64,000 bases of DNA. It comes from an uncultured Gemmatimonadota bacterium (GTDB lineage Bacteria > Gemmatimonadota > Gemmatimonadetes > Palauibacterales > KS3-K002). A program made the position numbers and the translations under genes. The stretch spans positions 25,485 to 89,484 of the forward strand of contig CAYFSW010000091.1 in assembly GCA_964345885.1 (NCBI GenBank). The letters run 5' to 3'. Under the pieces are notes generated by a model. The model did not search any database. It saw only the letters and a program-made list of their open reading frames with translations, and was not told the origin of the DNA. Below are positions 936-56,717 of this stretch, piece by piece; positions within the stretch are counted from its first letter, which is position 1; each line of letters opens with the position of its first letter.

Positions 936-949
936 CGTTTCTCCTCGAG

Positions 950-4117: not shown

Positions 4118-4182
4118 GAAACAACTCCTCGAGTTTTTCGGCTAGGCCCACTGAGGACAGTAAGATAACCGCCGGCGTACCT

Positions 4183-21278: not shown

Positions 21279-21284
21279 TCTTTT

Positions 21285-21465
21285 CAACATCCACTAGCCA
21301 ATATCCCGTTATCGAATTTCAAGGATTACTCAAGTGTCATGGGTCGTTCTCCGTTCTCCGAGTTCCAATGATCTGAGCGTCGCTGTTCCAGTGGATGTTG
21401 GGACTTGATCCTTGTTACATGACTATACCTTGAACATCTGGTCACTGAGTGTCGGATATTGGCTA
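21285..21465. repeat. AT-rich intergenic element with two inverted-repeat pairs
   Basis: caacatccact (21285-21295) pairs with agtggatgttg (21390-21400). tagccaatatccg (21296-21308) pairs with cggatattggcta (21453-21465). Local GC is far below the genome average. Confidence 0.5.
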
Positions 21466-22454: not shown

Positions 22455-22584
22455 CGATCCGCTCCCCGTTGCAACGATGCCTAGCACCAAGCTGTTACGT
22501 GGATGGGAGCGTCGCTCGAGTTCCCTAGCCATACAACACACACAGACCTATTACTGTAGTTCCACCCGGTACAAGGAGAGAGCC

Positions 22585-29873: not shown

Positions 29874-32102
29874 TTATCGCGCGTGTATCACTACGCTGCC
29901 GCCGCCGATCTCCTGGTCGAAGCCGTTGTCGTACACGTCGGCCTCGACGCCGGTGGTCTCGACTTCCTCCCAAATCCTGATCCGGAAGGTGTCGGCGTCT
30001 TTGTCACCAGCCCAGATCATGAACTTGTAGTCGCCGGTGCCGTTAATCATGCCCGACCCCTTTAACAGCGCGTAGTCGCTGCCGGTAACGATCAGCCACT
30101 CGTAGTCGATGCTGTGCAGGTTGAGGCCGGCCAGGTGGAACTGGAACTCCGCCTGGCCGGTGGGCACCTCCGCGCCCTTCTTGTACTTGGCGACGAAGCC
30201 GAAGTTGGCCCTGCCCGCCAGCGACGGGTCGGGCTCGTAAGCTCCCGCCGGCGAGTCGATCCAGCCGCCGCCGGTGACGAAGCCGGCGGTCGGGTCGTAG
30301 ACGACGACGTACGCGAAGACGGGCGAGAAGCCCGAGTCGCCATCGTTGTCGGTCACCGCCAGCCGGATCTCGTACAGCCCCGCCTCGTCATAGGTGTGGC
30401 TGTCGGTCACCGAGCCGGAGCCCGCCCCCTGCGTCACGGTTCCTGCCTCGCCGATTCCGGCGGGCCAATCCCAAACCCACTCGGCCGTGTGGGTGTCCAG
30501 CGTGCCAGGATCGGTGAAACCGGCTGATGCGATGATCGGCGTGCCCACCGAGACCAGGCTTAGCGGCGCAGCGATCGTGCCCACCGTCGGGGCGACGTTG
30601 TTAATGGTCGCGGTCGCGGTGGCCGAGCTCGACTGGCCGTCGTCGTCGGTCACCGTCAGCGTGACCGTGTACACCCCGTCGTCCAAGTAGGCGTGTTCCG
30701 GAGTCGAGCCGCTGCCCGTGGCGCCGTCGCCGAAATCCCAATCGAAACTCACGATGCTGCCGTCAGGATCGGCTGACCCGCCTCCATCGAACATCACGCG
30801 CGCGCCCTCGTCCCCCACATAGGGGCCGCCAGCGTCGGCGACCGGAGGCGCAGTGGCGGGGCCCGGAGGCACGACTAACCCGCTCAGCACGACCTCCGCC
30901 GTGAGCAGGAACGAGTGGTAGCAGCAGTCGTCCACGTGAGTGATGAGGACGGTGTTCACCTCGCCGCTGACCACATAATCCTTCAGGTCGGCGGTACCGC
31001 TACCGCCCCGGTACACGAAGCTGCCGGGCACGACGAGTCCGTCGGGATACTGCGAGTTGTAGATCGACACGCGTATGCCGTCGTCTATTCCCGAAGTGCT
31101 GATCCTGAAATCGGCGAGCCACGCATCAGGCGGAATGTCGACGTACGTGCGGAAGTAAGTGAAGTCGCCCCCGTATCGGCAGTTACATACACCACACAGA
31201 GTGGATGGGATCTGCTGGTAGTTGATGACTTCGGGATCGGGCGCAGCGCCCCAACCGGGATCGTCAGGTGATGGAATTGTCGCGTACGTATACTCTATCG
31301 GATCCCCGTGTTGTGCCGTCTCGAACCCCCATTCGACGACCCCTTCGCCGTGGTGCATCTCCCACGGCGTCCGGGTGGGGGGCGGGCCCGCCGGCGGGAT
31401 GAAGGCGACGTCGTCCATCACCCACCAACAGCCATACGGAAAGGAACAACTTCTTCGCAGAACTACACTATCGACAGGGCTATCGAAGTCGGCCGGCACC
31501 CACTGCATGGTCGGCGTCAACGTGATGTGAGCTGACTCGCCGACCTTCGTCGTCCCGTGGTATCCCTCGAACCAGAACTCCACAACGTAGTTGTACATCG
31601 GCGCTGGCTTGCCCACCCACGCACCGGAAAAGGTCACAGGCTGTTGGACGGTTATGTGCTCAGCGTCACGCCCACCGGCGTTGAACAGGAACACCTGACC
31701 AGAATGAGGCTGCCCGTACGAGCCGTTGTTCCAGTGGTAGACACCGGAAGTACCCTGCGGACCCGCCGAGAAGGTGACCCCCAGGTACGGGTTGTGCTCA
31801 GCCATCGTGTGGAAACCACTGCCCGAATCGTTAAGGTCCTCGAAATCGAGGACTCTCGCGCCAGTCGGGACCAAACTGACACTGGCCGCCGCTGTACTCT
31901 CTTCTTGCCTTGGTGACAGGGACTGCGCCGCCAGCTCCTCTGGAGTCATGCCAGTCAGCTCGAAAAAGCTGCCCCCGGAGGTCTCGGAAAAAGCCACTCC
32001 GGTCGGCGGGCCGGTCAGTTCGCCCGACTCGTCACGACAACCTGTCGCCAGCAGAAGACCCGTCAGGCCGACCAACAGCGTACGTGTAGGCGTCTTCTTC
32101 AC
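29874..32102 (-). CDS. PKD-domain-containing secreted lipoprotein
   Basis: A GTG start gives MKKTPTRTLLVGLTGLLLATGC (lipobox). Two PKD-like modules (FDWDFGDGATGSGSTPEHAYLDDGVYTVTLTVTDDDG; ...SHTYDEAGLYEIRLAVTDNDG). Confidence 0.75.
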   Translation of the reverse strand: MKKTPTRTLLVGLTGLLLATGCRDESGELTGPPTGVAFSETSGGSFFELTGMTPEELAAQSLSPRQEESTAAASVSLVPTGARVLDFEDLNDSGSGFHTMAEHNPYLGVTFSAGPQGTSGVYHWNNGSYGQPHSGQVFLFNAGGRDAEHITVQQPVTFSGAWVGKPAPMYNYVVEFWFEGYHGTTKVGESAHITLTPTMQWVPADFDSPVDSVVLRRSCSFPYGCWWVMDDVAFIPPAGPPPTRTPWEMHHGEGVVEWGFETAQHGDPIEYTYATIPSPDDPGWGAAPDPEVINYQQIPSTLCGVCNCRYGGDFTYFRTYVDIPPDAWLADFRISTSGIDDGIRVSIYNSQYPDGLVVPGSFVYRGGSGTADLKDYVVSGEVNTVLITHVDDCCYHSFLLTAEVVLSGLVVPPGPATAPPVADAGGPYVGDEGARVMFDGGGSADPDGSIVSFDWDFGDGATGSGSTPEHAYLDDGVYTVTLTVTDDDGQSSSATATATINNVAPTVGTIAAPLSLVSVGTPIIASAGFTDPGTLDTHTAEWVWDWPAGIGEAGTVTQGAGSGSVTDSHTYDEAGLYEIRLAVTDNDGDSGFSPVFAYVVVYDPTAGFVTGGGWIDSPAGAYEPDPSLAGRANFGFVAKYKKGAEVPTGQAEFQFHLAGLNLHSIDYEWLIVTGSDYALLKGSGMINGTGDYKFMIWAGDKDADTFRIRIWEEVETTGVEADVYDNGFDQEIGGGSVVIHAR

Positions 32103-32276
32103 CTCGCTCCCCTTTCCGCGTCGTGAGCACAGAACCTGGACACCCGCTTCCTGCCTGCACGCGACCGCCGATGGTGCCAGGCTGCTCGCCAACCTAGGGA
32201 CCGTTCTCTCGTGAGAATCGCTAGACTTCAGGGCGGGAGACTACTGGAGCCTGGAGGGAGGATCCGGCCGCACCAG

Positions 32277-32639
32277 CTAACTAAGGGCACATACTATGCC
32301 ATGTGCATTATTTTCCGGCCGATATCCAGAACAATTATGGGTGGCGATATGTGGCCTGTCTGGCAAGCGCACGGCTAGTTGCCGGATCGCGGCAGCTCGT
32401 ATTTGGCCCCTCGATACACCGTCACGGGACCGTGCTATGATCTCGGTGTCGTACGACGCGCCGGCGAGCCCGATGTGCACATCGGTGATCGAATCGACCG
32501 GCAGCCTGTGAGGGGAGCGGAGCTTGAGCTCGCCGTCGTAGAGGAGGCTCACCGTCCCGTCGGGCTCTATCTGCACAGCGTAGCGGTGCCAGCCCTCGGG
32601 CTCCGCAGGATATGGAGCCGTCTCCCAAGAACCCGTCAC
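32277..32639 (-). CDS. Hypothetical protein (in the lower-GC islet)
   Basis: An ORF with high GC3 in its 5' two-thirds. No recognisable motifs. Confidence 0.35.
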   Translation of the reverse strand: MTGSWETAPYPAEPEGWHRYAVQIEPDGTVSLLYDGELKLRSPHRLPVDSITDVHIGLAGASYDTEIIARSRDGVSRGQIRAAAIRQLAVRLPDRPHIATHNCSGYRPENNAHGIVCALS

Positions 32640-32703
32640 TTACTTCGGCTGTCCGAACACGAACGAGAACAGCTACCGCGCGTTTGCCTGGTGGCACGCG
32701 TTC

Positions 32704-33393
32704 ATGCCCCATATCCCGGTCGATGCCAGCACCGGTCAGGTGACGGTCTACTGGCAGGGTCAGCGCAGAAATGACCTCGGATCGCCCGAGTGGGATTTGA
32801 TGCCTGACCTGGACCCGTTGGGGTCGGACGACAGCTTCGTGTTCACGTACGCCTACAAGGCTAAGAATGGAGATGGCTGGGACCACCTCCCTGGCGAAGC
32901 GGCGAGCTACCTCGGTCGCGCCCCGCTGCCGCCGGCGTACACGGTACTCGATGCGTTCCAGACTCTGACCGTGAGGGGACGAGGTAAGAAGGACCCCGAC
33001 CGAACCTGGGTTCGCTTCGAGGCGCAGACGTTCGCGGATCTGGAAGATCACTCAGAGTATACCAGTATCGCTGCGACACACAGATTCCTGGTCACTGAAC
33101 CGGGTGGCTCGCGGTATCTTCCCGCAATTAGGTCGACCGGTATCAACCCCGACGACCCGGTCGAGCCCAACTTTCACAAGGAAGAGTTTGAGGCTGAGTA
33201 CCTCACTGAGCATGGTTGTCACCAGATAGACCTGATCGGCGTTTACAGGCGCTCATACACTCCTTCCGAATACGACGGCAAGGACTACGTTTGGGACTCG
33301 ACGCTCGACGGCGCGGATCCGGGACCGGTATCCTTCCATTACGACGCCTCCACGAGAGAGGTGACGTTTTACAGCACGCCGGGTTGCTCGTAG
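32704..33393 (+). CDS. Hypothetical protein (in the lower-GC islet)
   Basis: A 229-aa ORF with moderate GC3 bias. No recognisable motifs. Confidence 0.45.
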   Translation: MPHIPVDASTGQVTVYWQGQRRNDLGSPEWDLMPDLDPLGSDDSFVFTYAYKAKNGDGWDHLPGEAASYLGRAPLPPAYTVLDAFQTLTVRGRGKKDPDRTWVRFEAQTFADLEDHSEYTSIAATHRFLVTEPGGSRYLPAIRSTGINPDDPVEPNFHKEEFEAEYLTEHGCHQIDLIGVYRRSYTPSEYDGKDYVWDSTLDGADPGPVSFHYDASTREVTFYSTPGCS

Positions 33394-33426
33394 CAGAACG
33401 AGGCCCCCAGGCCCGCCGCCGCGGCC

Positions 33427-35721
33427 CTAGAGTTGCGGCGGCCGTAGAACGAGTCGGTTGGCGGTGTTCGCCTCCACCGCCTCGCGGGTAAACAAGAGCG
33501 GGAAATAGCGACCCTCCGCCCAGAGCGGGAGCAGGTCGCCGTAGTGCGGGCTCGCCGGCTGGCCCGACTGGCCGGGTGTGCTGGTGGCGACCGAGCGGTC
33601 CCAGTCGGCGAGGTCGATGATCTCGCGGAACGAGGCGCCGCTCCGCCGGCCGGCGACGTTCACCGTGGTGCCATCGCCGCTACGCTCGACCGTCGGCAGG
33701 TCGTAGGCAAAGACACCCAGCGGATGGGGGAACGCCAGCGCGTTCATCGGACCCCAGCGCCAGGCCGTCCAGTCGCTCCCCTGCTCCGCCTCGAGTCGGG
33801 CGACCGCCGCCGCCAGCGCCGCCTCGAGCAACGAGTCGCGCAGCGCCACGGGCGTCGCCTCGCGCAGCGCGCGCCGGTCGAGCGTATCGCGCCAGGTGTG
33901 GTAGAGCGCCGCCGCGGGGCTGTCACGGTCGATCCGCTTGTCCCACTCGACGAGCATGCGCCGCGCCCGCTCGGTCACCTCCGACGCGCCGCTCCAACCC
34001 TCGAGCGTGCGACAGGCGTTCGCCGCGGCGGACGAGTAGACGTCGAGCTGGAGCCGCTGGAAGCCCTCGACGTTGAAGCCGCGCCCCGCCGACAACACGT
34101 CCACTATTCGCAGGTATCGCCGCGGTGAGGCCCAATCGAAACCGAGGGGCGGCTCGTAACCCTCAGGCATGATGTTGTGGTTAGCGGTGGCGATGAAGCC
34201 GCGGGCCGGGTTGTACTCGCGGGGCAGCGCCTCGAGCGGCAGGAAGCCCTGCCACTCGTACTCGCCGGTGCCGGGTACCGGCAGTCGCCCGTACCAGCCG
34301 TCCCGCACGGGTGTGAGCCCGGCCGCCTGCCAGCCGATGTTCCCATCGACGTCGGCGTAGATCAGGTTTTCCGACGGGACCTTCCAGGCCTTCATCGCCT
34401 CGAGGTACTCGTCCCAATTCCGAGCCTGATCCACGCGGAGCGAGCCCAGGTAGCCGGCCGTACCGGGTTCGGCAAGCACCGAGCGGAAGGCGTAGGCGCG
34501 ATGGTCCACGGTGTCCTCGTAGAGGATCGGGCCGTGGCGGCTGAACTTGAGCTCGACGACGCGCGGCTCTTCACCTTTCACCCGGATCGTGTCGATCTCG
34601 ACGCGCAGCGGCTCCCAGCCGCCACGCCAGCGCACCTCGTTACGATTCTCCGGGTTCACTTCCTCGACCACAATGTCCTGCTGGTCGATCCCGACGATGG
34701 TGAGCCCCCAAGCGATCCGCTCGTTGTGGCCGATGGCCACGCCGGGGAGCGCCGGTTCGCCGGAGCCGATCACGTTCCAGCCCCGGCCGTTCAAGTGCAC
34801 GAGGTAGCGGAGCGAGGGCACGAGGATGGACCGGTGCGGGTCGTTGGCAAGCATCGGCGCCCCCGTCGCCGTCAGGGTGCCGGCCACCACCCAGTTGTTG
34901 CTGCCCTCGTCGCCCCTTACCGCAGGCGCCGCTTCGGTAGCCGACCGGTAGCGCTCGAGGAGCGGCGGCCGGGGCATCCCGGCGTAGGCCGCCCGGATGA
35001 TCTCGAGCACCGTGTCAGGAAGGGCCGAGACTTCGAGGCCCTGGGGCACCCGCAGCTCCTGCCACGGGTCGGGGTCATCGAGCCGGTTCGCCTCCTCGAC
35101 CCCCAATTGCCCGACTCGCAAGGCGAGCCGCAGCTCGCCGAGCGCGTTGTCGGTCATGGGTAAGCCCGCCATGCGCAGCAGCGGCACTGTAGCGGACCAG
35201 GGCTGCGGCTCGATCCCGGTCAGCACGAACTCCACCGGCGGATTCGCCCGGCTGTGCTCGATGAACGCGTTCACGCCTCTCACGAACGACGTGATGATCC
35301 GCTCGCCGTCCGGGTGATAGCTGGTCCACTCCGCCTCCATGTCGCCGCGGTAGCCGAGGAGGCGCGCCACCCGATCGCGCTCGAACGCCTCTGGCCCAAC
35401 GATCTCGGCGACCCGCCCTTCACCGACGCGCCGCCACATCTCCAGCTGCCACAATCGGTCCTGGGCGGCGACGAAGCCCTGGGCGAAGAAGAGGTCGTCC
35501 ACCGTCTGGGCGTAGATATGCGGCACGCCCCAGCGGTCGCGGAGGATCTCGACCTCCTGTTCGAGCCCGGCGAGCGTGATCGTGCCCTCGATCTGCGCGA
35601 GGGTCTCCTCCGCCATCTCCTCCAGCTTGCCGGGGTCACCGGGGCCGGGCCCGCAGAACGAGACCCCGATGGCCAGGACGAGAATGGGCAGCGTCCGCGT
35701 CAAACATGTCTGTTTACACAT
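33427..35721 (-). CDS. Penicillin-acylase-family (Ntn-hydrolase, S45) protein; possibly an acyl-homoserine-lactone or beta-lactam acylase
   Basis: An N-terminal signal and the alpha-subunit region. GDEGSNNWVVAGTLTATGAPMLANDPH carries the nucleophilic Ser of the beta-subunit (SNNW motif). Confidence 0.85.
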   Translation of the reverse strand: MCKQTCLTRTLPILVLAIGVSFCGPGPGDPGKLEEMAEETLAQIEGTITLAGLEQEVEILRDRWGVPHIYAQTVDDLFFAQGFVAAQDRLWQLEMWRRVGEGRVAEIVGPEAFERDRVARLLGYRGDMEAEWTSYHPDGERIITSFVRGVNAFIEHSRANPPVEFVLTGIEPQPWSATVPLLRMAGLPMTDNALGELRLALRVGQLGVEEANRLDDPDPWQELRVPQGLEVSALPDTVLEIIRAAYAGMPRPPLLERYRSATEAAPAVRGDEGSNNWVVAGTLTATGAPMLANDPHRSILVPSLRYLVHLNGRGWNVIGSGEPALPGVAIGHNERIAWGLTIVGIDQQDIVVEEVNPENRNEVRWRGGWEPLRVEIDTIRVKGEEPRVVELKFSRHGPILYEDTVDHRAYAFRSVLAEPGTAGYLGSLRVDQARNWDEYLEAMKAWKVPSENLIYADVDGNIGWQAAGLTPVRDGWYGRLPVPGTGEYEWQGFLPLEALPREYNPARGFIATANHNIMPEGYEPPLGFDWASPRRYLRIVDVLSAGRGFNVEGFQRLQLDVYSSAAANACRTLEGWSGASEVTERARRMLVEWDKRIDRDSPAAALYHTWRDTLDRRALREATPVALRDSLLEAALAAAVARLEAEQGSDWTAWRWGPMNALAFPHPLGVFAYDLPTVERSGDGTTVNVAGRRSGASFREIIDLADWDRSVATSTPGQSGQPASPHYGDLLPLWAEGRYFPLLFTREAVEANTANRLVLRPPQL

Positions 35722-35732
35722 TGGTGTCCCTG

Positions 35733-35834
35733 TGGCCGGTGGCCGGTGAGTCGGTAGCCGCTAATGGCCAATCGCCAGATAGGAACTGCAAATTACCGGC
35801 GCACCGGCCCACTGGCCACCGGCTACCGGCCAGG
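35733..35834. repeat. CGGT-heptad array plus an inverted copy, in a divergent promoter region
   Basis: gtggcCGGTggcCGGTgagtCGGTagccg (35733-35760), and its approximate reverse complement ccggcccactggccaccggctaccggcc (35796-35834). Confidence 0.5.
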
Positions 35835-36100
35835 GCACCTGCAAGACCAACTGGTGTAACAAGAAGCGGCCGTGCTCGGTGGGCTCAAAGCGGCCGCCGC
35901 TCCCCCTCCGGACGGCGTCCTCCAGGCGCTGGAAACCTTTATCAGAAGCGGGGCGAGGCGATTTGACAGTCCGTGCACGAAGTCCCTAACATTGTGGGAC
36001 GTACGGCTATACTGACCTTCCCCGCACAGGAGTAGGACCACTGGGCGCACAGTCCAACGGCGCAGCGCTCATCGGGCTGTTCTACGCGGAGCGAAACCGG

Positions 36101-36706
36101 GTGTATCCCCTCCGGGCACCCGTGATGTCGGTCGGCCGTGCTAATGCCAACACGCTGAGGATTCGCGATTCGCGGATCGCCGCCCACCACGTCCGCATAG
36201 AACGCGATGATGGCCACTTCGTCCTCGCCGTGATGGCGGACGACGCTCCGACCACGCTCAACGGTTCGGAGCTGCGGTCGGGTGACCGCCGGACCCTGAC
36301 GGAAGGGGACCTGATCGGGCTGGCCGACCTCGTGTTCCGATTCACCGACGATCACGGGGACGGGGTGCTCGGCCGCCTATGGGTCGTGGCTGGTGTCCAC
36401 CGGGGCAAGGTGTTCCGTATCGATCGGCCGGACTACGCGATTGGCCGCGCGACAGACAATGACGTCCAGTTCCCCGATCGTTCCGTGTCCAGGCATCACT
36501 GCCGGATTCATAAGAACGACCAGGCCTGGTGGATCGAAGATCTGGAGAGCACCAACGGTACGATACTGCACGGGGCGCCGCTGCAGGCGCCGGTGCGACT
36601 CGAGCATGGAGATGAGATAGCAACCGGGTTCTCGAGATTCGTTTTCCAGGACGGAGATCGACCGCTCGTGAGCCTCAGATTGGAGCCTACGCCGCCGTGC
36701 AACTGA
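36101..36706 (+). CDS. Tandem-FHA-domain protein
   Basis: Two FHA cores: (1) SVGRANANTLRIRDSRIAAHHVRIE...TTLNGSEL, and (2) AIGRATDNDVQFPDRSVSRHHCRI...STNGTILHG. GTG start. Confidence 0.8.
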   Translation: MYPLRAPVMSVGRANANTLRIRDSRIAAHHVRIERDDGHFVLAVMADDAPTTLNGSELRSGDRRTLTEGDLIGLADLVFRFTDDHGDGVLGRLWVVAGVHRGKVFRIDRPDYAIGRATDNDVQFPDRSVSRHHCRIHKNDQAWWIEDLESTNGTILHGAPLQAPVRLEHGDEIATGFSRFVFQDGDRPLVSLRLEPTPPCN

Positions 36707-39648
36707 ATCACCGTTTGTACACCGAGCCAGGTCACGCGAGAGGGCTGACTATCTGGTCCGTCGCGCTCGCGTCCGTCGTCCTCTTCGCCGCGAACGGCTA
36801 CGCCCAGGCCGTTCCCAAGGCAGCCTACGTGCCCGAGGGCTCCTTCCAGCTACCCGGTAGGGGGCAGCCCGGCACGCCCGACGAGCCCGCCGCGCTGGCG
36901 CTGGGCCACGACCGAACCGTCCACGTCGCCGACGGCCGTGGCCTGGTCTTCGTCTTCGACTCAAGTGGCGTCTACCGCCGGAGCTACGGCGAGGAGCTGG
37001 ATGAGCCCCTGGCGATCGGGATCACCTCGGAAGGCGAGTCCTACGTGCTCGATGGCGATCAGAAACGGGTGTACGTGTTCGGTCCCGGCGGCCAATACCT
37101 GCGCTTCATCGGGGGCAAGGGCAACCGGGGCGGCCAGCTGTCCGACCCGGTAGACCTGGCTCTGGGCCCCTGCGGGCAAGTCTACGTCCTCGATGCCGGC
37201 AGGAGAGCCGTTCACGTGTTCAGCCGGGACGGCCTCTTCGTCCGCACGGTCAGCCTAGGGATGGCGCTCACTCAGCCGCTGTCGTTGGCGGTGGGGAACG
37301 ACGGCCGGATTTTCGTCGCCGACGAACGCACCCCCACCAATATCTTCGCCCTGCCCCCGTTCACCCAGGTGCCCTGGGTCGGAGCGACGCCCCGCGGCCT
37401 GGCCGGCACCGTGGCCTTCCGCGGCGCCGAATTAGAGGAGCCCGTCGCCACGGCAGTGAACGACCTGGGGAGCGTCGTCGTCCTCGACAAGGAGGCCGGC
37501 CGCCTGTACCGGGCCAACGGCGACCAGGTGATCGGACCCACCGACCTGCTGTACGGCGGCGCGGGTACGGGGCGCGGGTCGTTCCGCGAAGCTGTGGACA
37601 TCGCCTTCGCAGGCTCCGACGAGCTGCTGATCCTCGACCGCAGGCTGCGCAAGGTGGAGAGGATTCGCCTCACGACCGAGGAGGGGTTGTCACCGCGAAT
37701 CGCGATGGACTTCCCGATCCGGGTCAGCCAGGTGCCGACCAGCCTCGCTTCGCCGCTGCTCGACATCGGTTACGCGCCCGACGGTACTCCCCGCTTTCTG
37801 GTGGAGACCGAGGACCGGATCCTCACCATGCACACCGCACTGGCCCAGCTCCACGAGACGGTCTACGGCGATAGTGTGAACATGTACAGACCCGACCCTG
37901 AGGGCGGGTCGCGCTTATTCAGCGGCGACATCGGCCGAGTCGAACAGGCCGTGATCACCAATACCTCGGTCATCGCAGCCGATTCGCGGCGCAATCGCTT
38001 CGCCGTCTTCGACCTCGAGAGCGGGGAGCTGACCGGTACGTACGGCGACAACTACCAGGACAACCGCAGGCTCAGGGATCCGAAGGGCGTAGGCGTTCTG
38101 GCCGACGGCCGTATCGTCATCGCCGACACGGGCAACGATCAGGTCAAGATCTTCAGCCCTGACCTGGCGAGCCTCGTTGCCAGCTTCGCGTTCACCGATC
38201 CGGCGGGCGTGGCGATCGACCCGGACGGCGAGATCTTCATCTGGGACGAGAGCGGCGCACAGGTCGCCCGACTCGACGCCGCCGCGCAGACCTTCGAGCC
38301 TCTGCCGGCCGGCTTCCTGCCCGGCCCGGTCAGCGCCATCACCTTCGACCAGGCGGGCAATCTCTTCGCCCTCCACCGCGCCACGCACCGAATCACGATC
38401 ATCACGGCCGGCCTGACCGGAGTGATGATCCAGCTGGGGGCGGAAGGTGCCTTCGGTAATCCGACGGCGCTCAACGTCGATCGCGACGGGAATATCTACA
38501 TTACCGACGAACGTTCTAAGCGGACCGCGATCTACCGTTGGGACGTAGCATTCCCGCCGCTGGCCGGCTTCGATATCGACTTCCAGCCCGACGCGGCTGT
38601 GTTGAGCTGGCAGTCGGGTCCTTCAGGCTTCATCCGTGGGTACGAGATCCAGGGTGCCGACGCGCCGAACGGGCCTTACAGCGGCCTGTTCGTCACGGCC
38701 GCATCGCCATTCCGTATCACCGCCGACAATGTCCCGGAAAGGCCGCCCCGCTATGTGCGAGTGGCGCCCGTGTTCATCACCGGCGTCCGGGGCCGCGCGT
38801 CGAATCCGCTGCCTCTCGCTTACTTCGCGGCGAACCGAGCCTACGCGGACGAGGACTACGCGACGGCGGTGCAGGACGTCGCCGAGGCGGACCGACTGAT
38901 CGAGCGCGGTGTGATCGAAGCCAGCAGTGAGGCGCACGGGCGGTTGCTGTTCGTCGCCACCGCCAGCAGCTACGCACAAGGCGACTTCCGCAGCGCAGTG
39001 GACTGGGGGCAGAAGGCAACGCCTCACCTCGACGCGATGCCCCGGGAACAGAGGATACAGTTCCACTTCATCGTGGCCGAGACCTTCATGCGGCTGGGCG
39101 ACCCGCGCTCGGCGAGTCAGCATGTCCTGGCGCTGGTCGGCCAAGGACCGCGCCCCGAGTACTACGAGGACCAGTCGGTGGTCGATCAGTCGTTCCGAGT
39201 CTACCGAGGCGTCCGCGACGCCGGCCACTCCGAAGACGCGCTCGAGTACCTGCGCCTCTACTGGCAGTCGATACCGGAGAGCGTCGAGTACCTGAAAAAC
39301 GAGTACGCCGACTCGGTAATCGTGTTCTCCACGCGCCAGGTGCTCGGACCCGGCTTCCAGTACTGGAGAGAGGCGGACTACGGCCGCGTGGTCGGGTTCT
39401 TCGAGAACCTACTGGCGGAGGGCGGCTTGCATGGCGAGCAGACGGTGGTCGGGCGGCAGGTGTTGGCGTGCGCCTACTTCGCCTACGGCGACCGCGTGAG
39501 AGCGGAGGACACGTTCCGCGAGATCTTCAGCATCAGGCCCGACTTCAACCTCGAGCGTGAGATCCCGCGGCTGCAGCAGCTGTATGCGCTGCGGATATAC
39601 AACCCGGAGACGCAACGTTTCTTCGGAGCCCTGAGACCGGGGTCGTAG
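36697..39648 (+). CDS. Secreted NHL-repeat beta-propeller protein with a C-terminal TPR-like helical region
   Basis: A signal peptide (LTIWSVALASVVLFAANGYAQA). More than 10 repeats with the NHL signature (VYVLD, IFVAD, VVVLD, IVIAD, IFIWD, IYITD...). A C-terminal alpha-helical repeat region. Confidence 0.8.
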   Translation: MQLNHRLYTEPGHARGLTIWSVALASVVLFAANGYAQAVPKAAYVPEGSFQLPGRGQPGTPDEPAALALGHDRTVHVADGRGLVFVFDSSGVYRRSYGEELDEPLAIGITSEGESYVLDGDQKRVYVFGPGGQYLRFIGGKGNRGGQLSDPVDLALGPCGQVYVLDAGRRAVHVFSRDGLFVRTVSLGMALTQPLSLAVGNDGRIFVADERTPTNIFALPPFTQVPWVGATPRGLAGTVAFRGAELEEPVATAVNDLGSVVVLDKEAGRLYRANGDQVIGPTDLLYGGAGTGRGSFREAVDIAFAGSDELLILDRRLRKVERIRLTTEEGLSPRIAMDFPIRVSQVPTSLASPLLDIGYAPDGTPRFLVETEDRILTMHTALAQLHETVYGDSVNMYRPDPEGGSRLFSGDIGRVEQAVITNTSVIAADSRRNRFAVFDLESGELTGTYGDNYQDNRRLRDPKGVGVLADGRIVIADTGNDQVKIFSPDLASLVASFAFTDPAGVAIDPDGEIFIWDESGAQVARLDAAAQTFEPLPAGFLPGPVSAITFDQAGNLFALHRATHRITIITAGLTGVMIQLGAEGAFGNPTALNVDRDGNIYITDERSKRTAIYRWDVAFPPLAGFDIDFQPDAAVLSWQSGPSGFIRGYEIQGADAPNGPYSGLFVTAASPFRITADNVPERPPRYVRVAPVFITGVRGRASNPLPLAYFAANRAYADEDYATAVQDVAEADRLIERGVIEASSEAHGRLLFVATASSYAQGDFRSAVDWGQKATPHLDAMPREQRIQFHFIVAETFMRLGDPRSASQHVLALVGQGPRPEYYEDQSVVDQSFRVYRGVRDAGHSEDALEYLRLYWQSIPESVEYLKNEYADSVIVFSTRQVLGPGFQYWREADYGRVVGFFENLLAEGGLHGEQTVVGRQVLACAYFAYGDRVRAEDTFREIFSIRPDFNLEREIPRLQQLYALRIYNPETQRFFGALRPGS

Positions 39649-39702
39649 AAACATGGCAAGGGGGCCACTCTGAAGAAGAAGGACTTATTCCTAGGCCGTC
39701 GG

Positions 39703-41991
39703 GTGGCGGTCTACCGGATCGACAAGTTCCTCGGTGAGGGCGGCTTCGCCTATGTCTATAGGGCGCGCGACACGAACCTCGACATCGACGTAGCGCTCAA
39801 GATCCTCAAGCCCGCCTTCGCTTACGACGAGGTGTTCGAAGAGAACTTCCGGCGCGAAGCTCACCGGGCGGCGAAGTTCCGTCATCCCAACGTCATCGCC
39901 ATCCACTACGCCGGTAAGGACGACGACATAGTCTTCTTCTCCATGGACCTGCTGGAGACCGGCCTCAAGGATCTCATGACGCCGGGCAAGCCGATGGAGG
40001 AGGGCGCCATCATCAAGGTCGGCCTCGACGTCGCCTCCGCCCTGCAATTCGCCCACACCCACGAAGGCGGAATAGTCCACCGCGACCTGAAGCCCGACAA
40101 CATCCTCTTCGACCGTCACGGCAATGCCGTCGTGACCGACTTCGGGATCGCCGAAGCAGCGACAAATTACACGGCGGCGACCGGCACGACGGTCTACGTC
40201 GGGACCCCGAAATACATGTCGCCGGAGCAGGCGCGCGGCCATCGAGTCGATCACCGCTCCGACATCTACTCGTTGGGCGTAACCCTCTACGAGATGGCCA
40301 CCGGCGAGGCGCCGTTCACCGGCCGCGACTGGTTCGAGTTGGGCCGCAAGCACATCGAGGAACTCCCCTCGCTGCCGCGTGAAAAGAACACCGATCTCGA
40401 TCCGGATCTCGAGCGCATCATCCTCAAGTGCCTGCAAAAGAACCCGGCCGATCGCTACCAGAGCGCCGAACACCTCAGGTCCGAGCTGTCGAGGCTGGAA
40501 GGCGCGACGCAGCGAACCGTCGTGCTCACCGTACAGAAGACCGAAGAGGAGAAGACCCCGACACCAGTGACGCCGGCTCCTTCGGTGGCGGCGGCCCAGG
40601 AGTCGGAGGCTCGCGAGGCACAGCGCAGCCCGGCCGATCTCTACGAGGCGACGACGCAACCGCCGAAGAAGCGGAGCCGCGCCTGGTTATGGCTGACCGC
40701 GGCAGCAGTGCTGATCGGTACCGTCGTATCTTACTCCACCGACCTCGCCGGCTTCCGCACCTTCGGCGAGGAAAAGGTGCCGTTCCTCGCCAACCTGCCG
40801 GTCCTCGGCTCGGGCGGTGTCTATGTGACCAGCTTCTACTACGCCGCCGTGGAGGGCGGAGCCGATGTCGAGCAGGCGGCGTTCGACATCAGGTTCAGCT
40901 CGCCCGTCGACCCGGTGACCGCCAGCTCGGAGAACGTCAAGCTCCTCGGTCCCAACTCGCGCGCCCTGCCTGCCGAGGTCGAGGTGAAGGAGGGTGGCGC
41001 ACGGATCACGGTCCTGCCAAGCATCCGTCTGCGCTACAACACCCGGTACGAGATCGAGATCGGCGAAGGACTACTGAGCCAGAGGGGAACGCCGATAAGG
41101 CAGAACGCGCGCGCGGCAGAGCCGGGTGCCGTATTCCCGTTCAACACACGCCTGCCACCGCCCGACACGGAACGCCCGACCCTAGCGGAGAGCACGCCGG
41201 CCAAGAACGCCCGCAACGTCCAGACGGGCGCGACGATCACCCTCGGCTTCAGCGAGCCGCTCCAACAGTCGACGGTGAACGCCGGAACGATCCTGCTGCG
41301 CGATGCGAGGGGAATACAGCAGGAGGTCAACGTACTGACGGGCGCTGGCGGACGGGCCGTCGAGGTCCGCCCGATGACGCAGCTGATTCCCGGCACCAGC
41401 TACACGGTGGTCCTCACGAACGAGATCAGGGACCCGACCGGTAATCGACTGATCCCCGACAGTGTCGTCTTCCAAACGAGGTCCGCCACACCGACACCCG
41501 TTGTCCCCGTGGATCCGGGCACTGTCACCGTGAACGTGATGCCGCCGGAGGCACGCGGTTACGTAAAGGTTTTCATAGACAATGAGGACATGGGGTACGT
41601 GCCGAAGCTCGGCCTCGAGGTCGAGGCACGTGTCGAGCACAACCTGAGGCTCGTCGGCGCCCCGCCCTACTCCGCCTTCGAGTTCACGGTCTATCGGGAG
41701 GGCTTCACGCTGGGCCCGGGCCAAAACCGGGAGATCGTACCCGAGATCCAGCCGTTCGGCTGGATCACCGTGACCACTGCCAGCGATGCCCCTACCGCCG
41801 ACGTGTTCATAGACGGCGAGTATGTTTCCTCCACACCGCTTGCGGGTTACACTTTACGCTCTGGACCGCACACGCTGGAGCTGCACCCGAGCGAGGAAGA
41901 CCTTCAGCGTTACGGGGTGTACACAGCTAACTTCACGGTCCCGAGGTTCGGTGAGGAAAGGCTCACCAATCTGAGACTGCCCGCCAAGTGA
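39703..41991 (+). CDS. Transmembrane Hanks-type Ser/Thr protein kinase with an extracellular Ig-like (Big/SbsA-type) domain and a PEGA domain
   Basis: LGEGGFAYVY (Gly loop), VALK, HRDLKPDNIL, DFG, SPEQ (APE-like). A TM helix (AWLWLTAAAVLIGTVVSY). C-terminal Ig-like repeats and a PEGA-like domain (YVKVFIDNEDMGYVP...ADVFIDGEYVSSTPL). Confidence 0.85.
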   Translation: MAVYRIDKFLGEGGFAYVYRARDTNLDIDVALKILKPAFAYDEVFEENFRREAHRAAKFRHPNVIAIHYAGKDDDIVFFSMDLLETGLKDLMTPGKPMEEGAIIKVGLDVASALQFAHTHEGGIVHRDLKPDNILFDRHGNAVVTDFGIAEAATNYTAATGTTVYVGTPKYMSPEQARGHRVDHRSDIYSLGVTLYEMATGEAPFTGRDWFELGRKHIEELPSLPREKNTDLDPDLERIILKCLQKNPADRYQSAEHLRSELSRLEGATQRTVVLTVQKTEEEKTPTPVTPAPSVAAAQESEAREAQRSPADLYEATTQPPKKRSRAWLWLTAAAVLIGTVVSYSTDLAGFRTFGEEKVPFLANLPVLGSGGVYVTSFYYAAVEGGADVEQAAFDIRFSSPVDPVTASSENVKLLGPNSRALPAEVEVKEGGARITVLPSIRLRYNTRYEIEIGEGLLSQRGTPIRQNARAAEPGAVFPFNTRLPPPDTERPTLAESTPAKNARNVQTGATITLGFSEPLQQSTVNAGTILLRDARGIQQEVNVLTGAGGRAVEVRPMTQLIPGTSYTVVLTNEIRDPTGNRLIPDSVVFQTRSATPTPVVPVDPGTVTVNVMPPEARGYVKVFIDNEDMGYVPKLGLEVEARVEHNLRLVGAPPYSAFEFTVYREGFTLGPGQNREIVPEIQPFGWITVTTASDAPTADVFIDGEYVSSTPLAGYTLRSGPHTLELHPSEEDLQRYGVYTANFTVPRFGEERLTNLRLPAK

Positions 41992-42009
41992 GGGGAGGAC
42001 CCGGCGCGA

Positions 42010-43599
42010 ATGGATCTAGTCCTCGTTGTCCGTGAAGGCGCGCAAGTTGGGCGCGTTTTCACCGTCTCACGGGGCGATCGCAAGACGATCGGCCGCGCGC
42101 CCGACTGCGATATCCGCCTGCCCGACCAGGGCGTCTCGCGCCGCCACTGCACGATCGAGAACGTGGGTGCCGTGCTCCGGGTCGTCGACCTGGAGTCGGC
42201 GAACGGCAGCTTCATCAACGGGCAGCTGGTGGAACGCGGCTCGCTGGGGCCCGGCGACCAGCTGGCGGTGGGGCCGACGATCCTCGAGTGCCGGGCGCGG
42301 CCGACCGCGCCAGACAGAGCACCGGGCGAGGCGACGCTCGCCTATCGCGAGGAGGGCACCACGACCGTGGTTCGCAAGGTCGTGGACACCCAGTACCCGG
42401 GCATGGAGGCGCTGGCCGCCGCCGGGAAGCCCGAGGATCTGGATGACCTGCAGCGCGCTCAGCGCAACCTGGCCACCGCCTATCAGGTCTCCAAGATGCT
42501 GGCCAACGCCCCGGGACTGGAAAAGCTACTCGACGAGGTCATCGACTCGATCTTCGCCGCCATCAACGCCGATCGCGCTGCCCTCTTGCTCCAGGACCGC
42601 AGCGACGGGTCGGACGAACTCAGGATCGTGGCATCGCGCTCGCGCACCGGCGAGGACAGCGACCTGGACGAGATTAGCGTCAGCCGGACGGTGGTGCAGG
42701 ACGTGCTCGAGAACGCCGCGTCCTCACTGAGCCGTGACGCCAGCGCCGACGCCCGTTATAAGGCCGGGGAGAGCATCATCCAGCAGAAGATCCGCTCGGT
42801 GATGTGCGCGCCGGTCTCCACCGACGACAGCGTGATCGGCGTCCTTTACGCCGACAGCCGGAGCCTCACCGGCGCCTTTGCGGAGAGCGACCTCGAGCTG
42901 CTGGCTTTGATCGGCAACCAGGCCGGCGTGGCCATCCACCGGGCCCAGTTGATCGCCCAGCTCGAGAAATTCTTCTTCGACACGATCCGCGCGATAGTAG
43001 CGACGATCGACGCGAAGGACGGCTACACGCACCGCCACTCGGAGCGCGTGGCGGACTTCGCTGCCAAGATCGCTACCGAGCTAGGCAGAACCGATGAGGA
43101 GATCGAGGTCGTCAAGCTCTCCGCCCTCCTGCACGACGTCGGCAAGGTCGGCGTGCCCGAGGCCATCCTCAACAAACCGGGCAAGCTGACCAAAGAGGAG
43201 TTCGACGAGATCAAGAAGCACCCGGTACACGGCGTGAACATCCTCGGCCACATCGAGAGCCCCCGCTTCAAGGAGATCCTCCCCGGCGTTCGGCATCATC
43301 ACGAGAAGTGGGACGGCTCGGGCTACCCGGACGGTCTCTCCGGCGAAACCATACCATTCCTCGGCCGGCTGCTCGCCGTGGCCGACGTGCTCGACGCTCT
43401 GAGCTCCGACCGCTCGTACCGCAAGGGCCTCGGCTTCGATAAGTCTGTGGAGATCATCCGGCAGGACGCCGGCAGCCACTTCGATCCCGATGTCGCCGCA
43501 GCGGCCGCGGAGCTGCACTCGCGTGGTGAACTGGAAGTGTTGCCCGAGTGGATCGAGCCCGAGTCGGACCCCATGCCCACGAAGACCCTAGACCCCTAG
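42010..43599 (+). CDS. FHA-GAF-HD-GYP protein (a putative phospho-Thr-regulated c-di-GMP phosphodiesterase)
   Basis: An N-terminal FHA (TIGRAPDCDIRLPDQGVSRRHCTI...SANGSFING), a central GAF-like region, and a C-terminal HD-GYP (HSERVADF...LHDVGKVGVP...HHEKWDGSGYP). Confidence 0.85.
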   Translation: MDLVLVVREGAQVGRVFTVSRGDRKTIGRAPDCDIRLPDQGVSRRHCTIENVGAVLRVVDLESANGSFINGQLVERGSLGPGDQLAVGPTILECRARPTAPDRAPGEATLAYREEGTTTVVRKVVDTQYPGMEALAAAGKPEDLDDLQRAQRNLATAYQVSKMLANAPGLEKLLDEVIDSIFAAINADRAALLLQDRSDGSDELRIVASRSRTGEDSDLDEISVSRTVVQDVLENAASSLSRDASADARYKAGESIIQQKIRSVMCAPVSTDDSVIGVLYADSRSLTGAFAESDLELLALIGNQAGVAIHRAQLIAQLEKFFFDTIRAIVATIDAKDGYTHRHSERVADFAAKIATELGRTDEEIEVVKLSALLHDVGKVGVPEAILNKPGKLTKEEFDEIKKHPVHGVNILGHIESPRFKEILPGVRHHHEKWDGSGYPDGLSGETIPFLGRLLAVADVLDALSSDRSYRKGLGFDKSVEIIRQDAGSHFDPDVAAAAAELHSRGELEVLPEWIEPESDPMPTKTLDP

Positions 43600-43627
43600 G
43601 TTTTGAAATTTCGGCAATCGACAGGCC

Positions 43628-43825
43628 TCAACGGCGGAGCCAACGCGAGCCTGGCAGACGGTGTACCAGGCTGCCCAACCGCTGGCCTAGCGTCTGACCC
43701 GGGCGAGCGGGTATAGCGAGTGCGATAATCAGCAACGCCAGCCCCACGTAGAAAAGCCAGCGCTGGCCCAAGCGATCAGCAGCCAGCGCCAGCGGCGCGC
43801 CTACGAATATCAGGGCCAGCTTCAA
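43628..43825 (-). CDS. Small hypothetical membrane protein
   Basis: 65 aa with two hydrophobic helices. Weak support. Confidence 0.3.
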   Translation of the reverse strand: MKLALIFVGAPLALAADRLGQRWLFYVGLALLIIALAIPARPGQTLGQRLGSLVHRLPGSRWLRR

Positions 43826-43836
43826 GCGAAGGTGGA

Positions 43837-44634
43837 TCAGTCACCTCCCTTGCCGCGTCTCGATTCCAAGAAACGGCGCAAGCCCCCGCGATAATCCTCG
43901 GTCAACCGGGCGAGAGCGTTCACCTCGGCGCCCGCCCGGATCGCCGCTTCGAACGAGTGCCGCTCCGTCTGATAGATCAGCCGCTTCGATAGCGCCAGCG
44001 CACTCGCACTGTGCCCAGCTAGCTCCTCGGCAAACTCGCGGCTCTGCTCCTCGAACGAATCGGTCGGGTAGATGTGGTGGACGAGGCCGTAGCGCTCCGC
44101 CGAATCCGCGTCAATGATCCGGCCGGTAACCACCAACTCGAAGGCCCGTTTTTCGCCGACCGCGCGCCGCAGCATAGCGATCACCATCGCCGGCAGGAAG
44201 CCGATCTTCACTTCGGGATAGCCGAAGCGCGCGTCTGAGGCCGCCAAGACGATGTCGCATGCAGTAGCAAGCCCACAGCCACCCGCTACAGCGTGCCCCT
44301 TCACGGCTGCGACAACCGGCAGCTCGATTCTCCGCAAGATCAGGAACAGATCGCCCAGCGCGTCCGCATCATTGAGCTGTTCCTCCACGCCCGCATCCAT
44401 CAGCTCCGACAGCGCCTCGAGATCGGCGCCCGCACAGAAGTCTTTGCCCTCACCGCGCAGCAGGATAGCTCGAACCCGCTCGTCGGCGTCGGCCCACGCC
44501 AGCGCATCCGATAGCTCATCGACCAGCTCGGAGCTCAACGCGTTCCGTTTCTCCGGCCGGTTGAGGCTGATCGTCGCAACCCCAGTCGACTCGTCGATGT
44601 CGACCGTGATCGTGCTATAGCTCTCCTCGTACAT
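43837..44634 (-). CDS. Enoyl-CoA hydratase/isomerase (crotonase family)
   Basis: LNRPEKRNALS...GEGKDFCAGADL...AAVKGHAVAGGCGLATACD carries the crotonase oxyanion-hole motifs. Confidence 0.85.
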   Translation of the reverse strand: MYEESYSTITVDIDESTGVATISLNRPEKRNALSSELVDELSDALAWADADERVRAILLRGEGKDFCAGADLEALSELMDAGVEEQLNDADALGDLFLILRRIELPVVAAVKGHAVAGGCGLATACDIVLAASDARFGYPEVKIGFLPAMVIAMLRRAVGEKRAFELVVTGRIIDADSAERYGLVHHIYPTDSFEEQSREFAEELAGHSASALALSKRLIYQTERHSFEAAIRAGAEVNALARLTEDYRGGLRRFLESRRGKGGD

Positions 44635-56282: not shown

Positions 56283-56717
56283 CTACAATACCCGGGACAG
56301 GATCTCTTCTTGACGCCGGAACATCTCGCTCTCCATGCGCTCCGGCCCTTCCGGGTGGTCGTGGCCGAGGACATGCAGTACTCCGTGCACCACCAGGCGC
56401 AACAGCTCCTCCCGCAGCTCGACCCCGTACTCCCTGGCCGATTCCTCCGCCACAGCAGGGCAGATGTACACGTCACCCAGCGGATCCGCCTCCTCTGCCA
56501 GATTGAAAGCGATCACGTCGGCGGGACGCGTGCGCCCCAGGTGAGCCGCGCCGAGGGCTGCCATGCCGTCCGCATCGAGGAAGGTGACAGAGATCTCACC
56601 GCCTTCCACACCTTCGGCCGCCGCTGTTACCATCACCGCCCGCTCCACATCAGCCGCCTCGAGAACCGAGACTGCCTCCAACCTGTTGGCGTGGATAACG
56701 AGGCCGGTCGGTGTCAC
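56283..56717 (-). CDS. ybeY: Endoribonuclease YbeY (rRNA maturation factor)
   Basis: HGVLHVLGHDH is the H3xH5xH zinc motif. Confidence 0.85.
   Translation of the reverse strand: MTPTGLVIHANRLEAVSVLEAADVERAVMVTAAAEGVEGGEISVTFLDADGMAALGAAHLGRTRPADVIAFNLAEEADPLGDVYICPAVAEESAREYGVELREELLRLVVHGVLHVLGHDHPEGPERMESEMFRRQEEILSRVL

Follow-up and report, generated by a model that had tools for sequence, protein, structure and literature searches.

This report concerns a four-gene operon (g1 to g4) in a 64-kb stretch of DNA, hereafter the window, from an uncultured Gemmatimonadota bacterium (contig CAYFSW010000091.1; GC content ~65%). The operon encodes a tandem-FHA protein (g1), an exported double-propeller protein (g2), a membrane Hanks-type Ser/Thr kinase (g3) and an FHA-GAF-HD-GYP enzyme (g4). 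The g4 product is 100% identical to a protein that NCBI assigns to a Gemmatimonadetes metagenome-assembled genome. Crosstalk between Hanks kinases and cyclic dinucleotides is poorly documented, and the best-studied case is DgcB (Bd0742) from Bdellovibrio bacteriovorus, an FHA-GGDEF diguanylate cyclase whose FHA domain gates it upon binding a phosphopeptide and whose upstream Ser/Thr kinase has been postulated and not identified (PMC6733907). FHA-GGDEF-EAL proteins have been noted in cyanobacteria. A periplasmic binding protein, a kinase and an FHA effector are combined in the GlnH/GlnX/PknG/GarA pathway (PMC8050422). In the Bacteroides sensors BT4663 and BT4673 (4A2L, 3VA6, 3OTT), the signalling protein itself carries two propellers and then an Ig-like sandwich as its ligand-binding unit outside the cytoplasm. 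In the type VI secretion system (T6SS) pathway of Pseudomonas aeruginosa, which comprises PpkA, PppA, Fha1 and TagR, one cluster encodes a membrane Hanks kinase with a periplasmic domain, an activating periplasmic accessory protein and an FHA reader, and in PknD from Mycobacterium tuberculosis an NHL propeller fused to the Hanks kinase is its sensor. Finally, the GAF-HD-GYP protein PmGH from Persephonella marina is reportedly an active phosphodiesterase for cyclic di-GMP (c-di-GMP).

The g1-g4 locus exhibits considerable similarities to these systems, but there are also significant differences. As in DgcB, a consensus FHA domain is fused directly to an enzyme that, judged by similarity, metabolises c-di-GMP. 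Unlike DgcB, however, g4 carries a degrading HD-GYP domain rather than a synthesising GGDEF domain, has a GAF domain interposed, is without the N-terminal self-ligand tail that bears the phospho-acceptor Thr, and has a candidate kinase, g3, in its own operon. Compared with PmGH (4MCW), g4 has the same GAF-HD-GYP span, HD and GYP motifs and seven metal ligands, but bears an additional N-terminal FHA domain and a conserved linker, and Tyr339 replaces the Glu that serves as third-metal ligand. Like the PknB/PknG-GarA/OdhI and GlnH-GlnX-PknG systems, the locus combines a Hanks kinase, FHA readers that would control enzymes and, beside the kinase gene, a gene for an extracytoplasmic protein that would feed the kinase, and both g1 and g4 have FHA domains that match the structures of GarA, OdhI and FhaA. 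Unlike in GlnH-GlnX-PknG, the place of the solute-binding protein is taken by g2, whose 980 aa comprise a double propeller and a helical repeat, g3 is itself predicted to span the membrane, and the FHA domain of g4 is fused to its target enzyme. The union of a membrane Hanks kinase, a periplasmic protein and an FHA reader recalls PpkA/TagR/Fha1, whereas the predicted output here is a nucleotide phosphodiesterase. Similar to BT4663/BT4673, g2 has two propellers and then an Ig-like sandwich; in contrast to them, it is exported as a protein of its own and ends in a helical repeat, and its TM-scores against these sensors are low (0.2-0.28) because the architecture alone is similar.

Kinase-FHA effector pairs, accessory-fed membrane Hanks kinases and FHA gating of a c-di-GMP enzyme are already known, and the locus is not categorically new. 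What is new is a named candidate kinase for the FHA-GAF-HD-GYP family, together with a putative sensor pair whose outputs, kinase or cyclase, are interchangeable. The original prediction had called the coupling of FHA to HD-GYP an uncharacterised pathway. This agrees with the literature insofar as neither an FHA-HD-GYP enzyme, nor this Gemmatimonadota module, nor a PEGA/Big_5 kinase with an NHL partner was the subject of any paper found by full-text searching, but the principle of FHA gating of a c-di-GMP enzyme was already established by DgcB. An automatic name from JGI already joins 'HD-GYP domain-containing protein' with 'pSer/pThr/pTyr-binding fo[rkhead]'.

In the mechanism that we propose, exported g2 and the Big_5/PEGA ectodomain of g3 would together make up a periplasmic sensor of two parts. 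A signal received there would activate g3, leading to Thr phosphorylation on g3 itself (activation loop, juxtamembrane linker) or on partners. The second FHA domain of g1 (FHA-2) and the FHA domain of g4 would then bind g3-made phosphothreonines, with g1 serving as an adaptor or scaffold, and binding would alter the hydrolysis of a cyclic dinucleotide, most likely c-di-GMP, by g4, by analogy with DgcB. Gating could proceed either with g4 docked on the kinase or through a self-ligand in the conserved g4 linker. The system would be reset by a PP2C phosphatase encoded elsewhere in the genome; as the original prediction had stated, no PP2C was detected in the window, either by Pfam on all called open reading frames (ORFs) of at least 140 aa and several shorter ones, or by phmmer and six-frame tblastn with a PP2C query from a related locus (best E 0.39 and 0.28, respectively). 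The organisms are uncultured, and we infer each functional link in this pathway, including all protein-protein contacts, the direction of regulation and the substrate, from comparison. The full chain from sensor to kinase, phosphothreonine, the FHA domain of g4 and altered cyclic-dinucleotide hydrolysis, with g1 as adaptor, has in our judgement an even chance of being correct.

Comparison of ~35 related loci, collected by looking up exact proteins and by scanning metagenomes with g2 as the seed, and screened by tblastn with domain-level queries, bears on the sensor end of this chain. Distant g2 homologues have 33-40% identity to g2. A kinase with a Big_5/PEGA ectodomain follows the g2 homologue in the window clade and in loci L090, L109 and L111, and the trio of tandem-FHA, g2 and kinase genes in L090 sits in a different genomic context, without g4. 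In L089, L091, L118, L120 and L122, a class III nucleotide cyclase adjoins the g2 homologue, before or after it, and these cyclase partners have a transmembrane (TM) segment and a homologous Big_5/PEGA ectodomain. Behind the cyclase heads in L089 (7265-9154), L091 (13393-15309, overlapping the g2 homologue by 4 nt) and L120 (2743-4782), the g3-like ectodomain has 31-36% identity over ~400 aa. In L112-114 the g2 homologue is followed by a 178-aa PEGA-only protein. A search with the ectodomain gave 19 matches, the full-length ones being kinases and one cyclase; this search is limited by its word index and is not a census. At the level of sequence, the constant unit is the exported propeller protein plus the Big_5/PEGA ectodomain, and the cytoplasmic head is interchangeable between kinase and cyclase. 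Because the adjacency survives this head swap, g2 and the ectodomain are predicted to act jointly as an extracytoplasmic sensor, for which the swap is good evidence, by the same logic as for domain-swapped receptors. The suggestion in the original prediction that the NHL protein is a co-receptor has in this way gained comparative support.

The swap also bears on g1. The tandem-FHA gene was seen with the kinase version only, and no FHA gene adjoins the cyclase-version pairs in the five loci named above. In L109 a PP2C gene replaces the tandem-FHA gene, directly before the g2 homologue and the kinase. Because tandem-FHA and PP2C genes accompany kinase versions only, g1 would be tied to phospho-signalling by g3.

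It is possible, although we lean against it as stated in full, that g2 and the Big_5/PEGA ectodomain constitute an undescribed, Gemmatimonadota-specific two-part periplasmic receptor that is plugged either into cyclic nucleotide monophosphate synthesis or into a kinase with FHA-gated HD-GYP output. If this is true, g4 would be the first case in which the cognate kinase of a phosphothreonine-regulated cyclic-dinucleotide phosphodiesterase is identified. Independently of any coupling to g4, the pairing of kinase and cyclase with the same periplasmic protein offers a candidate sensor module in which one input could be rewired to different messengers. Among side observations on these loci, the PP2C gene in L109 has a divergently oriented FHA-kinase fusion further upstream (the two features lie at 3607-4602 and 1-1278). 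In L090, 5.4 kb downstream of the kinase trio without an HD-GYP gene, a gene at 21022-21921 (- strand) encodes a 299-aa class III cyclase fused to FHA, which may give this lineage a different second-messenger output read by FHA. The g2 homologue P0182, at about the same level of identity as those beside the cyclases, is named Longimicrobiales by NCBI and is not tied to L091, L120 or L089.

Turning to the output end, the operon offers a concrete kinase-reader pair for the widespread, uncharacterised FHA-GAF-HD-GYP architecture. The co-occurrence across genomes, a point raised by the original prediction, is observed: the full block recurs in 13 further loci (L081, L086, L093, L094, L096-L102, L104 and L106, some of them near-duplicates), in which g2 identity is 44-81%. 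The g4 gene is found in all loci of the clade with g2 identity of at least 44% that reach far enough, except the rearranged L092. Coupling of g4 to g3 is supported because tiny or overlapping gaps between the two genes are kept over this divergence (-4 to +23 nt in the nine orthologous loci measured, 4-nt overlaps included), because no promoter-like site precedes g4 in a scan of 35600-44000, and because the relevant residues are intact. Coupling of kinase, FHA and HD-GYP is plausible on these grounds.

Several observations, however, weigh against the mechanism proposed above. The linkage of g4 to the kinase is confined to one Gemmatimonadota clade, and nearly all block loci also share unrelated flanks, with RecQ upstream and an enoyl-CoA hydratase (ECH)-AtuA-carboxyltransferase group downstream. 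Because these unrelated flanks are syntenic, conservation of the block is confounded with general synteny and may partly be inherited gene order; gene order as strong proof of g3-g4 coupling was dropped for the same reason. One complete Gemmatimonadota genome, L092 (CP070722.1), has a truncated kinase and no g4 at the locus, and the kinase trios in L090 and L111 are without g4. The g4 architecture is widespread, and a kinase, FHA or NHL neighbour was found for none of five sampled g4 homologues outside the block clade (52-61% identity). A phospho-site is not identifiable computationally, and the juxtamembrane ATT motif of g3, described below, is weak in L093. The Ser-Arg of the beta4-beta5 loop is present in the first FHA domain (FHA-1) of none of the 17 g1 orthologues. 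Lastly, Tyr339 of g4 is shared with the cyclic GMP-AMP (cGAMP)-specific V-cGAP3 (5Z7C). The claim in the original prediction that the kinase drives the FHA-HD-GYP enzyme keeps the backing of the operon and of intact residues, but has against it the single clade, the syntenic flanks, the trios without g4 and the unlinked homologues.

These points bear most directly on an alternative in which g1-g2-g3 is a real module, whereas g4 was captured once, has been kept by inherited gene order and uses its FHA domain to read the marks of other kinases as well or instead, as it would have to in the many lineages where the gene is free-standing, so that at most expression is shared. The five contexts sampled beyond the block clade and free of kinases, the two g4-less trios, the conserved RecQ and ECH-AtuA flanks and the rearrangement in L092 would all be expected if this were so, and the five homologues with no kinase, FHA or NHL neighbour indicate that the FHA domain of the g4 family needs no adjoining kinase. 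However, the short g3-g4 gap has been retained although g2 has diverged to 44% identity; the block is intact even where the upstream flank differs, with a 7-kb insertion in the window and L094 and a pair of LytTR two-component genes in L086; and g4 has no promoter-like site of its own. We consider this alternative somewhat unlikely.

The distribution of the family is relevant to the same question. More than 120 clusters (90% identity level) of FHA-GAF-HD-GYP proteins share at least 49% identity with g4, and their named sources include Gemmatimonadota, Thermoanaerobaculia and Vicinamibacterales, that is, at least two phyla. A neighbour-joining tree built from g4 homologues groups nine of the ten block-linked copies together, with L093 and some free-standing or unknown-context sequences interleaved; the tree is too crude to choose between a single capture and repeated loss. 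A scan of a genome collection with the g4 alignment ran on generic HD-GYP motifs, with an FHA N-terminus in 0 of 80 loci, and was not used for orthologue context. As a separate observation on L092, a rearrangement cuts the kinase (13001-13294) to 98 aa and is followed by phosphoglycerate kinase and glyceraldehyde-3-phosphate dehydrogenase genes, the tandem-FHA and NHL genes staying in place.

The residues of g4 itself are well preserved. Its FHA domain, modelled by AlphaFold2 (AF2) with a predicted local distance difference test (pLDDT) score above 93, has a complete phosphothreonine-binding set, S43 being present in 120/120 homologues and G28, R29, R44, H46 and N65 in 119/120. The fold of the GAF domain (PF01590; 1.9e-14, 54.7 bits vs cut-off 22.4) is modelled with high confidence, and no NKFDE-type cyclic-nucleotide motif was seen in it by inspection. 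In the HD-GYP domain (HD_5, PF13487; 2.4e-40, 138.5 bits vs 27.2), LHDVGK and HHEKWDGSGYP are readable in the sequence, and across 71 homologues H375-D376 and H430-H431-E432-x-W-D-G-x-G-Y-P do not vary. The alignment of residues 149-495 with PmGH runs from end to end (E=3.6e-51), and seven of the eight PmGH metal ligands are retained (H343, H375, D376, H404, H430, H431 and D459, all invariant in the same 71 homologues); the position of PmGH Glu185 is occupied by the likewise invariant Tyr339. The metal site is more likely to be binuclear, and compatible with activity, than trinuclear. The alignment speaks against a catalytically dead HD-GYP domain, so that domains, neighbourhood and metal ligands, the three points at which the original prediction was held to be vulnerable, all stand. 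Among NCBIfam models, the only match above cut-off is that of a generic HDIG domain model to g4 (30.9 vs 27.6 bits), and no whole-protein model (equivalog, subfamily or exception) reaches cut-off for any of g1-g4.

The substrate range of HD-GYP domains is not readable from sequence. Similarity to PmGH makes c-di-GMP the most likely substrate of g4. V-cGAP3, however, is its second-best solved relative (3e-41) and shares both the (S/D)(P/G)YTxxHSERV first-ligand motif and the Tyr variant, so that cGAMP could be the substrate instead. More broadly, the HD-GYP domain might act on another nucleotide, such as 3'3'-cGAMP or pGpG, or be mainly a nucleotide-binding sensor and no c-di-GMP phosphodiesterase at all, in which case the module would have an output other than the level of c-di-GMP. 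Set against V-cGAP3 and its Tyr, the best relative over GAF and HD-GYP together is a c-di-GMP phosphodiesterase, PmGH, and the HD and HHExxDGxGYP motifs and the seven ligands are invariant; we regard such a departure as improbable.

The exported partner g2 is assigned to the NHL family by Pfam (PF01436; 2.3e-25, 87.8 bits vs cut-off 20). In Kyte-Doolittle hydropathy profiles (19-residue windows, threshold of at least 1.6), the sole window above threshold is a single hydrophobic segment at the N-terminus (residues 14-34), after which comes an A-Q-A site. The AF2 model, built with 59 homologues as input (pLDDT 90.2), has ~49 strands forming two six-bladed propellers and 15 stacked helices in the C-terminal region. 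Foldseek relates the model to the NHL propellers of TRIM71 and Thin (target TM 0.80-0.82), to other proteins with two propellers and a solenoid, and to the periplasmic sensor domains of BT4663/BT4673 (E ~1e-16). The original prediction had described g2 as a secreted NHL/TPR protein. The NHL assignment and the secretion signal are borne out, whereas no Pfam TPR family matches g2 at E<=0.01, and the helical repeat in the model is TPR-like; g2 homologues give faint or weak matches to TPR_14, TPR_19 and TPR_2. Because Pfam finds no TPR in g2 itself, 'TPR-like helical repeat' is the safer term for its tail. Wherever the sources name an organism for a full-length member of the g2 family, it belongs to Gemmatimonadota.

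The weak matches of g2 to lactonase, streptogramin lyase and ScyF-like families, and the fact that six-bladed NHL-type propellers include enzymes, raise the question of whether g2 is a co-sensor at all. It might be a periplasmic enzyme or an envelope scaffold co-regulated with the kinase, with the ectodomain sensing alone. This is quite unlikely in our view, as adjacency to the ectodomain protein survives both the head swap and the change of context, often with 4-nt overlaps, and as the Foldseek matches include two-propeller plus Ig-like periplasmic sensors of hybrid two-component systems.

The kinase g3 has a clear catalytic domain (Pkinase, PF00069; 171.5 bits vs cut-off 31.7), with the motifs GEGGFA, VALK, HRDLKPDN, DFG and SPE present and conserved in 12 orthologues and the activation loop ATGTxVxVGTPxYMSPEQ invariant in the same 12. 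The TM helix of the original prediction corresponds to a single candidate segment, AWLWLTAAAVLIGTVVSY (about residues 327-345), with KKRSR before it; its hydropathy of ~1.5 by hand sum is just below 1.6, and no window in g3 reaches that threshold. The ectodomain comprises 417 aa, in which two Big_5 domains are clear (1.6e-27, 96.7 bits vs 23.6), whereas PEGA is marginal (21.2 bits vs cut-off 20.8; clearer in L111, at 35.1 bits). Apart from this marginal PEGA, the FHA, NHL, Hanks kinase, Ig, GAF and HD-GYP calls of the original prediction are likewise confirmed by Pfam. In the juxtamembrane linker, the motif ATT(Q/R/K)xP(K/R)(K/R) is found in most block loci, is weak in L093 and is absent in two trios without g4. 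As a marker of g4-containing loci, this motif is suggestive, but it has two negative loci alone and is weak in L093, and it was not used as evidence.

In g1, Pfam detects FHA (PF00498) in two stretches (1.2e-33, 115.7 bits vs cut-off 20.7; 115.2 bits for the 221-aa version discussed below). FHA-2 is canonical, with GR, SRHH and NG in all 17 orthologues, and matches the FHA structures of GarA, OdhI, FhaA and DgcB (6HBZ/6HC0). In FHA-1, GR, His and Asn are kept in most orthologues, Ser-Arg is replaced by Ala-Ala (IAAHH) in the window, and no PDB match was obtained at E<=0.001. FHA-1 is probably not a standard phosphothreonine reader.

The linker between the FHA and GAF domains of g4 is conserved, with T/S at position 119 in 111/120 homologues, R122 in 114/120 and D126 in 104/120, and it is modelled with pLDDT below 50 for residues 100-131. 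This conserved segment of low model confidence may be a docking or phospho-acceptor linear motif. A longer form, E-[ED]-x-x-x-[T/S]-[VL]-[VL]-R-K-x-[VI]-D-[T/P], spans residues 114-127 (42349-42390), stand-alone homologues included. As far as is known, characterised FHA domains prefer a hydrophobic residue or Asp at +3, not Arg. A sub-variant of the proposed mechanism, in which g3 phosphorylates a linker Ser/Thr (T119 region) and g4, instead of docking on the kinase, uses its FHA domain to bind that residue either in cis or in trans between the partners of a dimer, similar to the self-ligand mechanisms of DgcB and GarA/OdhI, would draw on the conservation of [T/S]119-x-x-R-K-x-x-D in 104-114 of 120 homologues, on the low pLDDT typical of a linear motif and on the use of self-derived phosphopeptides by DgcB and OdhI, but it is very unlikely, since the +3 residue is Arg, the motif could be a structural element packing on GAF, and the FHA fold begins at residue 3, which leaves no N-terminal tail like that of DgcB or GarA. 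A T6SS-type or defence-type kinase module was also considered and rejected: Pfam on the ORFs of the window found no T6SS core genes, no genes supporting either type are present, and NCBIfam matches of this kind are far below their cut-offs (TagH model TIGR03354, 82.5 bits vs 120.25).

The coordinates of the operon and its immediate neighbours are given in Table 1.

Table 1. Position of the g1-g4 operon, its predicted domains and control elements, and the adjoining genes in the window (aa, amino acids; nt, nucleotides)
Feature	Coordinates	Strand	Basis or remark
Penicillin amidase, upstream of operon	33427-35721	opposite	
Sigma-70-like promoter of operon	35963..35992	+	TTGACA, 18-nt spacer, TAACAT
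g1 ribosome-binding site AGGAG, 8-nt spacer, likely CTG start (36041-36043)	36028..36043	+	orthologue alignment
g1 cytoplasmic tandem-FHA protein, 221 aa from CTG (201 aa from 36101)	36041..36706	+	Pfam
g1 ORF from GTG, 201 aa	36101-36706	+	
g2 exported protein, 983 aa	36697..39648	+	signal peptide aa 1-38, propellers 42-617, FN3-like beta-sandwich 626-693, helical repeat 708-977
g3 ORF, 762 aa	39703-41991	+	
g3 cytoplasmic Hanks-type Ser/Thr kinase domain, aa 1-259	39703..40479	+	Pfam Pkinase 3e-50
g3 Thr-rich juxtamembrane linker (TVVL, YEATTQPPKKR) and candidate TM, aa ~327-345	40480..40737	+	alignment, hydropathy
g3 extracytoplasmic part: two Big_5 Ig-like and PEGA-like domains	40738..41991	+	Pfam
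g4 ORF, 529 aa	42010-43599	+	
g4 FHA domain, aa 1-98	42010..42303	+	Pfam FHA 8.8e-18, 65 bits vs 20.7
g4 FHA-GAF linker, motif [T/S]119-[VL]-[VL]-R-K-x-[VI]-D-[T/P]	42304..42453	+	120 homologues
g4 GAF (aa ~149-312) and HD-GYP (aa ~318-505)	42454..43599	+	Pfam GAF, HD_5
Small 65-aa ORF, downstream, convergent to g4	43628-43825	-	

The four co-directional genes were placed exactly by the original prediction, with a 10-nt overlap between g1 and g2 and gaps of 54 nt between g2 and g3 and 18 nt between g3 and g4; only the start of g1 has shifted. The GC content at third codon positions (GC3) of g1-g4 is 0.76-0.88, as is usual for real genes in this window, which indicates that the four ORFs are genuine. 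Unrelated genes on the opposite strand bound the operon on both sides, and an enoyl-CoA hydratase and an AtuA/carboxyltransferase cluster lie beyond the small ORF downstream. In the interval 35600-44000, the only two promoter-like sites overlap each other and are both upstream of g1, and the motif ATTGACAG-N17/18-CCCTAACATT is kept in most of 15 aligned orthologous upstream regions. On the + strand no intrinsic terminator was found after g4 by pattern scan, and the region 3' of g4 folds no better than shuffles (z = -0.95). It is plausible from this layout that g1-g4 form one transcription unit.

The g1 frame stays open as far back as 35990, and the 37 codons that precede GTG 36101 encode ...GAQSNGAALIGLFYAERNR. 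The in-frame peptide before this GTG (AALIGLFYAERNR) is kept in orthologues that are ~55-65% identical overall. At the aligned start, the codon is CTG in 12 loci (the window and 11 others), ATG in two and GTG in one, and GGAG stands a few nucleotides before it in most orthologous loci. The start of g1 is most likely CTG 36041, 60 nt upstream of GTG 36101, and a protein started there gains N-terminal residues of FHA-1 that are missing from the 201-aa ORF. Because a rare start codon has been conserved, a deliberately low level of translation of the tandem-FHA protein is suggested. The promoter and the 40-nt leader before the CTG are strongly conserved; a regulatory RNA upstream of g1 was considered, and no Rfam match and no tRNA was found anywhere in the window.

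On the upstream side, ~7 kb separates RecQ (27055-28791) from the operon and contains, within 29874-35721, a PKD-domain protein, a family-less 229-aa ORF and the penicillin amidase. This stretch is taken to be an insertion, common to the window and its close relative L094, because RecQ is directly upstream in most orthologous loci. On the downstream side, the hydrophobic 65-aa ORF has counterparts at the same position in L081 and L086 (79% and 60% identity). A link between g4 and this convergent ORF was rejected, as the ORF is kept within the block clade only and the small ORF after a stand-alone g4 in L087 is unrelated.

Elsewhere in the window, two adjacent genes for M14 zinc carboxypeptidases occupy 22120-26339 (+ strand); the first of them (22120-24543), an 807-aa ORF that overlaps neighbouring ORF calls, was missed by GC3-based gene picking. 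At 459-5409 (- strand), a 1055-aa protein has a TLC-transporter-like region and HEAT repeats and ends in a cyclic-nucleotide-binding domain; it is flanked by a receiver protein and by a histidine kinase whose N-terminal domain is His_Phos_1. Finally, a membrane phosphohydrolase with 7TMR-HDED, 7TM-7TMR_HD and HD domains (56283-58972, - strand), which has a PgpH-like architecture and adjoins YbeY, is a further nucleotide-signalling candidate.

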